Shown piece after piece: positions 52,986 through 61,709 of a stretch of DNA of 64,000 nt; position 1 is the stretch's first letter; every line of letters starts with the position of its first letter. Position numbers and translations under genes: made by a program. The stretch lies in the IMG/VR virus record IMGVR_UViG_3300042905_002851, one strand, 5' to 3'. The notes beneath the pieces are model-generated. The model had not been told where the DNA came from. It saw only the letters and a list, made by a program, of their open reading frames with translations, and made no database searches. This DNA comes from an uncultured virus (IMG/VR IMGVR_UViG_3300042905_002851) (taxonomy: Duplodnaviria > Heunggongvirae > Uroviricota > Caudoviricetes).

Positions 52986-53395
52986 GGGGGTGTTTTTGGA
53001 TTTGACAGGTATTGGCTGAAGACAAAGGGCACGTGGAGACTGAATTAATCTCCTTAAAAACTGATTCACAAAAACAATCGGCGACGTTTTATCGAAAATG
53101 GAAACTCTTGGTTTACTGAGAGGTTCTGAAGTTACTGTAGCCTAAGAGGTTTACGGAAACGTGGGGTCGGTGGACACATAACCTAGCAACAGAAGTCTTT
53201 ATGGTGGAATACGACTGAACCATAAATCGAGTCGTCCATTGGTTGTTGATTTACGATGGTGAAGAACAAATCAACTTTGTTTTTGGTCAAATTAAAACCA
53301 AATATTTTGGGGTATTAAAAAATACCAACCTAAACGTGTAGTCCTTCTCTGACAGGATATTATGGACCGGAGTTCGAGCCTCCGCACCTCCACCA
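52986..53395 (+). ncRNA. ssrA: tmRNA
   Basis: GGGGGTG/CACCTCC acceptor stem with G3-U70, GGATTTGAC D-loop, T-arm CGGAG-TTCGAGC-CTCCG, encoded ACCA; tag frame 53080-53145 GDVLSKMETLGLLRGSEVTVA*. Confidence 0.95.
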
Positions 53396-53525: not shown

Positions 53526-53711
53526 TTATTTTTTTGTTGTGTCAGAAACAACTTCAGTTGTTGTTAAAGTAGAATCCGATACGTTTGTTACATCTTGACT
53601 TGAAACTTCAGTTGTGGTTTCAGTTGTTGCTCCATTTCCGTTTTCACCACAAGCCGTCATAAGAGTGATTGTCGTAAAAATAGCAATAGATAAGAGAATT
53701 AATTTTTGCAT
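53526..53711 (-). CDS. Small lipoprotein with Thr/Ser-rich tail
   Basis: Signal peptide with LMTA-C lipobox; D-S-T/D-T-T motifs. Confidence 0.7.
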   Translation of the reverse strand: MQKLILLSIAIFTTITLMTACGENGNGATTETTTEVSSQDVTNVSDSTLTTTEVVSDTTKK

Positions 53712-53749
53712 GCTTTCAATTAAATTTAAAGTTTATGTTAAAAATAAAA

Positions 53750-54620
53750 ACCTGAGATTACAGTTTTTGTAAGTGTCTTTCGAGTCATTATTGGTTCTAC
53801 TCTTATCCACAGGATTTTGTCCCGTAACACTCATTACCGATTGGTTAGACCAATCACCCCTTGACGATACAACTACTCTCTTACTACTCCTGTCTCCCCA
53901 AGATTGCGTCCTGGTTCGGTCTTCGACGACCTAGAGATTTTTCATAAAAATACGGTCAAACTTGCGGTTATCACGTTCCACTGACAGCCAGTGAATAGGT
54001 GGGTAACTTCCGTTATATCGTGACGAACACTTTTGCTTTTTAGTTATAAGTTTTACCTTTTCTATAAAAGTTTTTGTGTTGTGGATTGATCAAAGTTGTG
54101 GTCCGTCTTAAGCTTCATTATCTTTTGAATAACAAAATACCAAACAACTCCGTGAAATGTCCCCATTTCAATATTTCAAGACTACTTCGAAACTAACCCC
54201 TTGGTAGAAGTCGGTTAAGGTTAATAACGGCACCACCCGTACGTTAACATACCTTTCGGTTTTAAGTATCCTATGATACTGGAACCCGCAATAACAACAT
54301 TGGAAATATTGATTCTTGCAACGTCCCTACGAGTTATTCCTATTGGAGTTCCCTCCTCAACAAGATGACCCACATCACCTCGTCATAAAATCACTTTCCC
54401 TACACCGTTGGCCTCGGTACTAAAGATCTTATGGTATCTCGCCTGTGTACTCGACCTCAATATTCCGAAGACTATTGAGACGCAAACCCGTTACACTTGG
54501 GGGTTCACTTTATCCTACTTTCGTAGTTTATTTTATGGACTATACACGGCCCAATATCTTTATCAGTTTCACTCTTAAACCCGAAGGTTCTTAACCTAAT
54601 CCTGAACGGATAATATCTAA
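53750..54620 (-). ncRNA. Giant structured non-coding RNA (~870 nt), GOLLD-like candidate
   Basis: No ORF >=60 aa, visibly higher GC than flanks, many minus-strand hairpins with UUCG/GNRA loops, tandem promoters and boxA-like element upstream, T-rich run after ...GTAATCTCAGG. Confidence 0.75.
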
Positions 54621-54624
54621 AATT

Positions 54625-54791
54625 TCAAAGAACTTTATCGGACGTTTCCGATTTGTTTTACAAAGATAAGAATACTTTTTGAATTTTCCAAATTTTTTCT
54701 AAACTTTTTTGTTTTTTTTTGAGATTTGTGTCTGAACTGTTATCTACCTCATTTGTCTTACAAAGATAATAACTTTATTTTGTTATATCAA
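54625..54791 (-). promoter_or_regulatory. Two tandem Bacteroidota sigmaA-type promoters plus boxA-like AAGTTCTTTGA
   Basis: TATCTTTG at 54661-54668 and 54761-54768, each with TTG 20 nt upstream; boxA-like 54625-54635. Confidence 0.7.
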
Positions 54792-54808
54792 GTAATTTGT
54801 AATATTTT

Positions 54809-54946
54809 TTAATATTTTTCTATATAAACATCATATGTTCCATAGTATTGTGCTCTTAGTTGTGCAAATACTAAATTAGATGTCCACATTTTTTTTCCGT
54901 TGGCAATATAAACATACATTTCAACAATTTTAATTTCCTCTACCAT
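54809..54946 (-). CDS. Small hypothetical protein (45 aa, not in ORF track)
   Basis: MVEEIKIVEMYVYIANGKKMWTSNL...; TTGACT-N17-TATATT at 54970-54998. Confidence 0.55.
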   Translation of the reverse strand: MVEEIKIVEMYVYIANGKKMWTSNLVFAQLRAQYYGTYDVYIEKY

Positions 54947-55003: not shown

Positions 55004-56413
55004 TTAAAGATTTTTTTTCATTAAATCTTTCATTCGATTAACCTCTTCATTAATTTTATGTGTTTTTTTGTTTTCACTTATGTTACTTGTTGAATTTGAA
55101 GATCCGCCAATATAGTATAAATGCCAAGGTTCTGGAATTCTTAATTTTCCTGTGTTAACATATGTTACCTCAAACCCATATTTGCTCGCATTTTTTGATA
55201 CCCATTCCTTAACATCTTTATTTGCGTCCCACCACGAATTTTCCACACTAAAAATATCAAAAGCTTTTCCTGTGTGATGTTGACTAAATCCAGGTAAAGA
55301 ATTTGATTTTTGCGTATCATCAACCCCTCTTGTTTTAGCCTTTGTTCCAAAATTTAAAACTTGGTCGTCATAACTTCTATAACCTGATACGATATCAGAC
55401 GGATATTTTACATTAGGGTAATCAAGTTTACAATCTTTTATTAATTCTTTAACTTTTTTCTCGGCCTCTTTATTAACTCCACCATTATCAGGACTTGGAT
55501 TTCCTTCCATCTTAAACTCTTTATCTATATTATCTTGTGTAATATTTAAATTATACGGCGATTTTTTTAACTTTTCTATTGAAGACAAAACACCTGATGG
55601 TAGTTTGGTGTCTTTTATGTTTTGACTATTTTTAATTGTTAGTTTTTCGTTTCCAGATTTTTTACCAGGAGAAAACATATCCAACCAACCCATTAATTCT
55701 TTACCCCCAAATAAACTAAACAAAGAGTTATTATTTTTGGTATCACCACTTACATCATTAGTTGTTGTATCATTAGTTGTTGTATCATTAGTTGTTGTAT
55801 CGGTATTTGTTGTGGTTGGTATACCAGAATTATCTTTAAAATCATCCACAGATGGTGGTGATGAAGAGTTTTGGAGTCTATTTGAAATGTGTAAGTGGTT
55901 GTAGTGATTTCCTCCAATGTTTGTGTGCCACAAAACTGCCTTGTCTTTACCACTCTCGGTATTCCATGTATATCCCATTGACACTAACGCATCTTTTAAT
56001 TTAAACCCTAATTCTCTAAATTTTGCCAACCCATTTGTTGCGTTAGACGCTCCTCCTGAACCAACACCGTCTAATATTGCAACATCAACACCAGTACCGT
56101 TCATATGCCTACTTACATTTTTAGATCCTTTTACATTTCTATTATGTCCTGTTTTAGCGGTGGTTATTGTTGCAACAATTCCTACAGATTTTGCGGCAGC
56201 ATTTATATCATCTAATAACGGTTTATTAACAGAATCGTTTTGGGTTCCATCACTATCAAATTTTAAATTTGGATAATTAGTGCTATTAAGTTTAACTAAA
56301 TTAAGATCTTCATTAATTATATTTTTGTTATTTAATATGTCATCATATTTAGAAATGATCTCTATTATTATATCATTTTCTTTTATGTGATTTCTATGAA
56401 AATTATTACTCAT
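55004..56413 (-). CDS. Peptidoglycan peptidase with two M15-type domains (C-terminal VanY-like)
   Basis: N-domain SRH..G.GVD...HYNHLH; C-domain SGYRSY..Q...PGFSQHHTGKAFD...EPWH..Y; DTTTN linker repeats. Confidence 0.8.
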   Translation of the reverse strand: MSNNFHRNHIKENDIIIEIISKYDDILNNKNIINEDLNLVKLNSTNYPNLKFDSDGTQNDSVNKPLLDDINAAAKSVGIVATITTAKTGHNRNVKGSKNVSRHMNGTGVDVAILDGVGSGGASNATNGLAKFRELGFKLKDALVSMGYTWNTESGKDKAVLWHTNIGGNHYNHLHISNRLQNSSSPPSVDDFKDNSGIPTTTNTDTTTNDTTTNDTTTNDVSGDTKNNNSLFSLFGGKELMGWLDMFSPGKKSGNEKLTIKNSQNIKDTKLPSGVLSSIEKLKKSPYNLNITQDNIDKEFKMEGNPSPDNGGVNKEAEKKVKELIKDCKLDYPNVKYPSDIVSGYRSYDDQVLNFGTKAKTRGVDDTQKSNSLPGFSQHHTGKAFDIFSVENSWWDANKDVKEWVSKNASKYGFEVTYVNTGKLRIPEPWHLYYIGGSSNSTSNISENKKTHKINEEVNRMKDLMKKNL

Positions 56414-61264: not shown

Positions 61265-61268
61265 ATAT

Positions 61269-61339
61269 TCTCGTCTTTCCGAGATGTCAATAGGGATATT
61301 TTGTGTACAATTCAGGACTCTCATATACTTCCTTAGTTG
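61269..61339 (-). ncRNA. Small structured spacer RNA (stem, UGAC, G-GAAAGA-C hairpin), copy 2
   Basis: TGAC followed by TCTCG-GAAAGA-CGAGA just upstream of tRNA-Ile. Confidence 0.5.
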
Positions 61340-61493
61340 TAGTCAGGACAGGATTCTAACCTGCATGAACACTTTGAATTTTACCTACGCACAGTGAGGT
61401 AGTGTTCTTCATCATTCGCATTGCCTTTTCAAAGTGCACTTATTCAAGGTTGCCGTGCGTGTCACTATGTGTCTAACATTCCACCACCTGACT
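61340..61493 (-). ncRNA. tRNA-like RNA (154 nt) with a ~100-nt structured insert replacing the anticodon/variable arms
   Basis: Perfect AGTCAGG/CCTGACT acceptor, Leu-type D arm GTGGAATGTTAGACAC, T arm GCAGG-TTAGAAT-CCTGT. Confidence 0.7.
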
Positions 61494-61605
61494 ATTTTAA
61501 TTTTGTAGTTAAGTAGCTGACACACACTCTCGTTTCACCATCTTATGTCAACAGGTTAATGCACTTTACGAGTTTCCCGTTTCTTACCACCACAATATTT
61601 TAATT

Positions 61606-61709
61606 TCAATGAACTTCTTATTTCTTCACGGGAGTAGGACACCAACCTCTCACTTCCTACCCCCGTTGTTTCTCTTACAAATATATGGCGTTTGTTTTAA
61701 ACTGCCAAA
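61606..61709 (-). promoter_or_regulatory. Bacteroidota sigmaA-type promoter, leader hairpin and boxA-like element of the tRNA cluster
   Basis: TTTG 61706-61709, N20, TATATTTG 61678-61685; hairpin ~61628-61666; AAGTTCATTGA 61606-61616. Confidence 0.7.

Follow-up and report, generated by a model that had tools for sequence, protein, structure and literature searches.

The closest described relative of the RNA considered here is GOLLD env-38, an 833-nt RNA reported to assemble into a 14-mer cage of D7 symmetry (PDB 9MEE), whose caps come from the 5′ region and whose ring comes from the 3′ region (Kretsch et al., 2025, PMC12286853). The same report describes GOLLD as rising during lysis. GOLLD genes are carried by phages and prophages, as a rule next to tRNA genes. 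The GOLLD RNA of Streptococcus agalactiae is given in a review as 700 nt long, devoid of P9, P11a-c, and P21b, and dodecameric (PDB 9L0R; PMC12990946). ROOL RNAs (RF03087) are likewise large and phage-associated, form RNA-only cages and often lie near tRNA genes; in sequence and fold, they are unrelated to the RNA described below. The cage structure of GOLLD has been solved since 2025, and a tractable biological setting for this RNA is still wanting.

The leaders of rRNA operons provide a second point of comparison. The E. coli boxA consensus is reported as UGCUCUUUAACA, and the rrn leaders of B. subtilis carry a small 5′ hairpin followed immediately by the boxA-like AUGAUCUUUGAAA, which is bound by NusB (PMC13753749). 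Eight nucleotides of boxA are described as recognized, G2, C5, and U6 being those that matter (PMC3177189). A literature search found no paper joining GOLLD RNA with boxA. As for large phages, Al-Shayeb et al. (2020; PMC7162821) reported that huge phages carry tmRNAs and that the largest of their genomes have Bacteroidetes hosts; a literature search did not find the word GOLLD in that article, and none of the papers listed by a search on GOLLD together with jumbo or huge phages and tmRNA names GOLLD.

The window analyzed here, i.e., the whole 64,000-nt stretch of DNA, has genes for a major head protein, a portal, and a large terminase. We consider it very probable that it carries a complete GOLLD RNA gene of env-38 architecture, in a phage from lake water, probably one of jumbo size with a host among the Bacteroidota. 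Two aspects are of added value: the env-38-type 5′ domain with all its bridging elements, and a leader for which a reading as a putative mimic of those of rRNA operons is well supported.

Identification of a GOLLD RNA gene

Minus-strand positions 54655-53749 hold no ORF of at least 60 aa and have a raised GC content (0.38-0.43 over 53700-54600, against 0.20-0.33 in either flank). Both properties had been pointed out for about 870 nt of this region in an earlier reading of the letters alone (the sequence-only reading), and both are borne out, the longest ORF inside 53750-54620 reaching 56 aa (54408-54578, plus strand). That reading had hesitated between a GOLLD member and an unclassified giant RNA, and had proposed a search of Rfam for GOLLD, ROOL, OLE, introns, and RNase P. 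GOLLD is the sole family recovered: RF02032 matches positions 53749-54152 on the minus strand with 287 bits (gathering score 150; E 5.8e-81) and over the whole model (positions 1-416 of 416), and no other Rfam family was found at E ≤ 1 on either strand of 53650-54850 under permissive thresholds. Since the RF02032 model is limited to the 3′ half (P14-P27), which all GOLLD RNAs conserve, the 5′ half required a separate test.

Compared by eye with the env-38 construct (Supplementary Table 4 of PMC12286853), the window agrees with it motif by motif, starting with the helix at 54552: the same GAAA hairpin comes first, then GGAUAAAGUG, and the agreement continues over the remainder of the 5′ half. 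This homology identifies the 5′ domain of the window RNA as being of the env-38 type. The GOLLD part of the earlier alternative is thus upheld, by the 287-bit RF02032 match and the env-38-like 5′ half, and its other part is refuted: the window RNA belongs to a known family, of which it is a complete and ordinary representative, and not to a new class. From its predicted start, the RNA measures about 906 nt, of which GOLLD proper accounts for about 805 nt (54553-53749), against 833 nt in env-38. This core has a length expected of GOLLD, for which about 700-830 nt or more is usual, together with a linker of variable sequence in the 3′ region; the linker indeed aligns poorly, conservation being 0.44 at 54070-54051 and alignment columns 810-850 being rich in gaps. 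At its 3′ end, the RNA has GUAAUCUCAGGUU and, after it, a T-run at 53749, just as described in the sequence-only reading. The coordinates of all features are collected in Table 1.

Like env-38, the window RNA is made of two domains, its 3′ domain being full-length by the Rfam model; it shares family and 3′ domain with the S. agalactiae RNA, but belongs to the longer env-38 type. Residues listed as intermolecular bridges in env-38 (Supplementary Table 2 of PMC12286853) were mapped onto the window by eye, without an alignment tool, and followed through an alignment of 56 sequences, namely the window and 55 unique homologs (identity in the 5′ half, 68-98%). The window has the bridge donors B1 (GAAA loop), B3 (GGAA loop), B4 (GGGA/UCC loops), and B6 (CAAAA loop), none of which varies among homologs, and the U-G pair acting as B1 receptor is kept in 55 of the 56 sequences (columns 903:919). 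The J13/15-L20 pair equivalent to B7 (columns 862:933) shows perfect covariation in 55 of the 56, being G:C in 32 sequences and C:G in 23, the window included, and is T:C in one, and the neighboring columns 861:934 are G:C in 56/56. Loop L21a reads GUCGAA (CG) in the window and CGCAA (GC) in most homologs; such a GC/CG switch in L21a was reported as support for bridge B8 (PMC12286853). Loop L21b is CGCA, with GC retained. These two loops were equated, again by eye, with env-38 residues 656-657 and 675-676 (bridges B8 and B9). Palindromic L21a and L21b loops and a complementary J13/15-L20 are common to both RNAs.

Because the loops that bridge subunits in env-38 are present, a homo-oligomeric cage is a likely product of the window RNA. 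There is good reason to expect that the core of about 805 nt (54553-53749) would self-assemble into it through kissing loops and A-minor contacts. Fourteen subunits appear more likely by analogy with env-38; their number is not predictable from sequence, as the shorter S. agalactiae RNA, a 12-mer, illustrates.

The main difference from env-38 lies at the 5′ end. The env-38 construct starts at the equivalent of about 54553, downstream of the first 100 nt or so of the window RNA, and still makes a cage. This additional leader of the window comprises a promoter-proximal hairpin, a boxA-like motif, and a variable UUCG hairpin. The settings differ too: the window GOLLD, next to a tmRNA, is preceded by a promoter of its own, and the position described for env-38 is downstream of a tRNA-Met (PMC12286853).

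Table 1. Features of the GOLLD locus and its surroundings, with window coordinates.
Feature	Position	Strand	Basis or remark
469-aa VanY/peptidase M15 protein	55004-56413	-	domain E 7e-24; two genes upstream of GOLLD
45-aa ORF	54809-54946	-	directly upstream of GOLLD promoter
Distal promoter box TATCTTTGTAAGACAAAT	54751-54768	-	exact repeat of proximal box; possible upstream tandem promoter
Proximal promoter	54661-54692	-	TTTG (54692-54689), 20-nt spacer, TATCTTTG (54668-54661)
Small 5′ leader hairpin AUCGGAAACGUCCGAU	54637-54652	-	6 bp, leader fold
BoxA-like element GUUCUUUGAAA	54623-54633	-	unpaired in leader fold
Variable 5′ extension	54555-54612	-	UCAG/CUGA stem around variable-length hairpin, here with UUCG loop (54590-54577)
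GOLLD 5′ domain (cap domain), env-38 type	54153-54553	-	homology to env-38 construct, 5′ profile, pairing
GAAA hairpin	54526-54515	-	in consensus fold
C-UUCG-G hairpin	54470-54465, on stem 54481-54476/54459-54454	-	in consensus fold
10-bp stem	54383-54374/54369-54360	-	in consensus fold
ACC-GAAA-GGU hairpin	54260-54251	-	in consensus fold
GOLLD 3′ domain	53749-54152	-	RF02032 287 bits; paired cells 97.5%
Variable A-rich linker inside 3′ domain	~54090-54030	-
CGCA loop	stem 53915-53909/53904-53898	-	in consensus fold
GAUUGGU/ACCAAUC	around 53855-53839	-	in consensus fold
Terminal GUAAUCUCA hairpin	within 53749-54152	-	part of GOLLD 3′ domain
T-rich run past last hairpin	53737-53748	-	likely 3′ end or weak terminator
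tmRNA	52986-53395	+	Rfam 104.6 bits

A leader resembling those of rRNA operons

TAnnTTTG with an upstream TTTG is the promoter consensus of Bacteroidota. Tandem host-type promoters had been recognized upstream of the RNA, and two copies of an 18-nt box, TATCTTTGTAAnACAAAT, are indeed found 100 nt apart (54651-54668 and 54751-54768). The proximal promoter is the best-conserved upstream block (0.81). The distal box is poorly conserved (0.31-0.34), and only the close relatives L020, L046, and L061 have a second copy. The same type of promoter box precedes the 16S leaders of two Bacteroidota genomes, in support of this consensus. Transcription is predicted to start at about 54655, just upstream of the leader hairpin.

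The upstream boxA-like element of the sequence-only reading corresponds to GTTCTTTGAAA at 54633-54623. Its GTTCTTT is conserved in 55 of the 56 aligned sequences, and of the 66 unique viral loci whose flanks are complete, 56 carry GTTCTTT[GA]A at the same distance from GOLLD. In 50 of these 56 motif-bearing loci, a TAnnTTTG lies at most 80 nt upstream, the space between its end and the motif being mostly 26-28 nt (27 nt from the end of the -7 box in the window), and in 47 a hairpin of at least 4 bp is predicted to end at most 8 nt before it, with stem sequences that differ between loci. The motif is still present in L045, L049, and L001, where a tRNA directly upstream replaces the promoter. 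Neither TAnnTTTG alone (128 occurrences against 117 expected) nor GTTCTTTGAA with one mismatch (13 against 13.6 expected) is enriched in the window, and the significance of both therefore comes from their position and conservation only. Between the motif and GOLLD proper, the 5′ extension varies strongly among homologs in length and sequence (alignment columns 200-290), with compensatory variants in its outer stem, seen by eye only.

How does this motif compare with known boxA elements, the core of which resembles (U/G)GCUC(U/C)UU? The word GUUCUUUG shares G2, U4, C5, U6, U7, and U8 with the E. coli sequence given in PMC13753749, and the single departure noted from E. coli UGCUCUUU is position 3, where the motif has U instead of C. 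A Bacteroidales genome carries GTTCTTTGAAA 115 nt upstream of 16S, on the same strand, after a hairpin and below two TAnnTTTG boxes; in an Ekhidna genome, a hairpin and then the near-identical AAGTTCTTTGAAC occupy the equivalent site of the 16S leader, after three TAnnTTTG boxes. More generally, of 151 Bacteroidota genomes sampled, 26 have GTTCTTTGA at 95-125 nt ahead of the 16S 5′ site. This 5′ site is present in 102 of the 151, some of them having it at contig ends, and the reversed pattern was found in none of the same 151 genomes. The corresponding counts are 2/151 in the phylum of a Lachnospiraceae genome and 1/151 in the phylum of a Pseudomonadales genome, a contrast that is indicative only, the gap of 95-125 nt having been tuned on Bacteroidota leaders. 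As the motif also precedes 16S in these few cases outside the Bacteroidota, its presence alone is not enough to assign the host.

The window thus has the successive elements of an rrn operon leader, namely tandem promoters, a small hairpin at the 5′ end, a single-stranded boxA-like GUUCUUUGAAA, and a long untranslated structured RNA; unlike rrn leaders, these are phage-borne and stand ahead of GOLLD instead of rRNA. Judging from this resemblance, GUUCUUUGAAA probably serves as the boxA of a Nus-factor antitermination system. Host RNA polymerase would initiate at the TTTG-N20-TAnnTTTG promoter, at about 54655, and the nascent leader would fold into the small hairpin, exposing GUUCUUUGAAA, which as a boxA site would load NusB-S10 of the host together with the antitermination complex of rRNA type. 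We give an even chance to the next step, in which the untranslated, structured RNA of about 900 nt would thereby be transcribed fast and escape Rho termination. Expression in the manner of a stable RNA, which the sequence-only reading had inferred, is in keeping with this scheme. More tentatively, lake Bacteroidota phages may make GOLLD as their hosts make rRNA, in bulk and as a stable RNA, its co-transcriptional folding and its assembly depending on a Nus/chaperone complex recruited by the tandem promoters, the 5′ hairpin, and a genuine boxA; the leader, possibly retained in the cage, might also draw NusB-S10 away from rRNA operons. The rRNA-style leader in any case offers a concrete hypothesis for the expression of GOLLD.

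Could GUUCUUUGAAA be a structural part of GOLLD instead? Its UCUUU (54631-54627) would then pair with AAAGA (53780-53776) in a long-range helix closing the molecule. RNAalifold on the 56 sequences predicts exactly this 5-bp helix, and both strands are nearly invariant, as a tertiary contact would be. However, four of the five pairs are invariant and the fifth is found only as U-G, U-A, or a mismatch, so that there is no covariation. In addition, the env-38 construct begins downstream of the UCUUU element and yet forms an ordered 14-mer, and the contact reported for about this region of the 3′ domain is one between loop L27 and linker J24/26 (PMC12286853). Finally, the same motif follows a hairpin in the 16S leaders of Bacteroidota, where GOLLD is absent. 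Taken as a whole, a structural role of GUUCUUUGAAA is unlikely.

Less probable again, and to be regarded as a long shot, is a role of the leader as a decoy, in which boxA on abundant GOLLD RNA would titrate host NusB-S10 off the rRNA operons and so help to stop ribosome synthesis. The resemblance to rrn leaders, the reported rise of GOLLD during lysis (PMC12286853), and the similar leader borne by the tRNA array of this phage would all suit a decoy, but a boxA acting in cis, in GOLLD's own transcription, explains the same facts more simply.

Relatives and conserved fold

Homologs in viral contigs were collected with an exact 24-nt pattern from the 3′ domain, which gave at least 120 loci, 80 of them with full flanks. 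Among the matches listed, a profile of the window-type 3′ half matches 121 of 123 entries, and a profile of the 5′ half matches 72 of 123, i.e., the window, the near-identical L002, L001, and 69 loci of the scan; the window-type 5′ half thus recurs in at least 69 other viral contigs. Conservation along the window begins at about 54710, is maximal at the proximal promoter, spans the whole RNA, and falls after 53749. Eleven of the 80 full-flank loci have no match to the 5′ profile: ten of them have a different 5′ region and are mostly flanked by tRNA-Gln and tRNA-Arg, and L073 is truncated on its upstream side. Several loci (L007, L008, L014, L025, L028, L056, and others) combine the same 3′ domain with neither a window-type 5′ domain nor a boxA-like motif, and their GOLLD sits between tRNA-Gln and tRNA-Arg; in two loci flanked in this way, a tRNA lies close to the domain junction. 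In other viral loci, a tRNA-Met is found 13-20 nt past the GOLLD 3′ end.

In a collection of annotated phages, a single and distant relative was found, LR745206.1 (an uncultured phage record of 634,780 bp), whose GOLLD scores 287.3 bits and lies downstream of two tRNAs. The 24-nt GOLLD pattern was also searched in bacteria, in one genome per species, and gave 33 loci, with about 17 expected by chance (an estimate). The 5′ profile matched none of these 33 loci, and the 3′ profile gave short and weak matches in five. Rfam was run on 20 of the 33 loci, among them all 10 from Bacteroidota, and identified GOLLD in the Mycobacterium contig L129 only. No copy of the window GOLLD subtype was thus found in bacteria by this pattern scan of one genome per species, so that no host is tied to the RNA directly. 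The GOLLD of L129 (Mycobacterium sp.; 197 bits) has tRNAs on both sides and one tRNA match inside its span, in agreement with the reported tRNA embedded in mycobacterial GOLLD; a tRNA directly precedes this GOLLD, upstream of which no boxA-like motif was seen by eye.

The fold of the RNA is conserved in these relatives. As a single sequence, the RNA folds with a z of -2.49, and none of 20 shuffles folds as well. RNAalifold on the 56 sequences predicts 194 pairs, 129 of which show compensatory changes. In the 5′ half (104 pairs in 18 helices), 97.0% of cells are paired, compared with 32.6-44.1% when partners are slid by 1-3 columns; changes on both sides affect 73 of the 104 pairs (19-27 in the slid controls), the covariation score is 0.461 (0.057-0.111 in these controls), and none of 500 shuffles attains the observed values. 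The 3′ half, which served as positive control, has 87 pairs, 97.5% of cells paired, 58 pairs with compensatory change, and a covariation score of 0.588 against 0.072-0.122. The collection of homologs and the covariation analysis that the sequence-only reading had called for therefore support a structured RNA, with compensatory changes in 73 of the 104 pairs of the 5′ half. All the hairpins which that reading had listed exist in the minus-strand sequence, and all but one fall within helices of the consensus fold; the exception, the UUCG hairpin at 54590-54577, belongs to the variable leader extension and is predicted in the single-sequence fold only.

These data bear on what else the RNA could be. 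With Rfam alone, its 5′ 500 nt had no assignment, which would suit a new, unclassified class merely resembling GOLLD; in fact, this half matches the 5′ domain of env-38 and, among the matches listed, accompanies the 3′ domain in 72 of 123 entries. Together, the RF02032 match, the 5′-profile matches, and the homology to env-38 refute a new class, to which we give a negligible probability. The same negligible weight goes to a decayed protein gene, a group I/II intron, an RNase P, a ROOL, or an OLE RNA, several of which the length and the missing ORFs would suit, these being ruled out by homolog substitutions that keep base pairs and not a reading frame, and by the finding of no other Rfam family at E ≤ 1, with no ROOL match at the locus.

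Phage, host, and neighboring genes

The nearest record found measures 52 kb, with an estimated completeness of 14%, and extrapolation from this estimate suggests a phage genome of a few hundred kb; the same type of GOLLD is found in at least 10 contigs of 217-483 kb. Fourteen lake-water DNA runs contain 0.90-0.96 of the sampled words of the stretch. The contigs of six metatranscriptome runs, from six studies, contain 0.54-0.61 of these words, and may include DNA; these matches fit with expression of the stretch. For the host, promoter and boxA type are in favor of the Bacteroidota named in the sequence-only reading. The solved env-38 type of GOLLD is thereby placed in large phages of fresh water that, on these same grounds, probably infect Bacteroidota.

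The neighborhood of the RNA is itself conserved, and consists of the 45-aa gene, GOLLD, and a convergent tmRNA. The tmRNA of the window, which is missed by ARAGORN and detected by Rfam, converges on GOLLD from 354 nt downstream; five tRNAs lie about 6 kb away. A tmRNA-like sequence, convergent and downstream of GOLLD, is present in 27 of 120 viral loci among the matches listed, and in homologs a tmRNA, a tRNA-Met, or a tRNA-Arg adjoins GOLLD. This fixed place beside tmRNA and tRNA genes points to a translation-related role of the cage late in infection, an idea that we hold to be doubtful at present. The 45-aa ORF has same-strand counterparts in 45 of the 120 viral loci among the matches listed (40-77% identity). 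Its product had no PHROGs or Pfam match and nothing usable in a protein atlas, and is a possible partner of GOLLD. The 469-aa protein encoded further upstream is probably a cell-wall hydrolase.

A few other observations concern these neighbors. The tmRNA has a TATATTTG box 32 nt upstream, and one candidate tag frame (GGC...GCC TAA, at about 53080-53145) would encode GDVLSKMETLGLLRGSEVTVA. Between GOLLD and the tmRNA, a 61-aa ORF (53526-53711, minus strand) shows a lipoprotein-like signal (…LMTAC); it is conserved in only seven loci among the matches listed, and has a weak, sub-threshold match to Pfam DUF4969.

Words similar to the boxA-like motif occur at two further places. In the window, the tRNA array (61265-61700, minus strand) has a leader of the same design, with a TATATTTGTAAGAGAAAC box, a long hairpin, and then GTTCATTGAAA, one mismatch away from the boxA-like motif. 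The stretch 61265-61700 gave no Rfam family at E ≤ 1 except a chance-level match; after the motif, it continues for about 340 nt that are non-coding and have no annotation, and whose last part resembles the acceptor and T-arm of a tRNA (about 61495-61340). In supplementary file 4 of Kretsch et al. (2025), four near-identical human-gut sequences of about 570 nt, in an alignment that we judge to be that of ROOL from this length, start with UGUUCUUUGAU, which is the same boxA-like word at the extreme 5′ edge.
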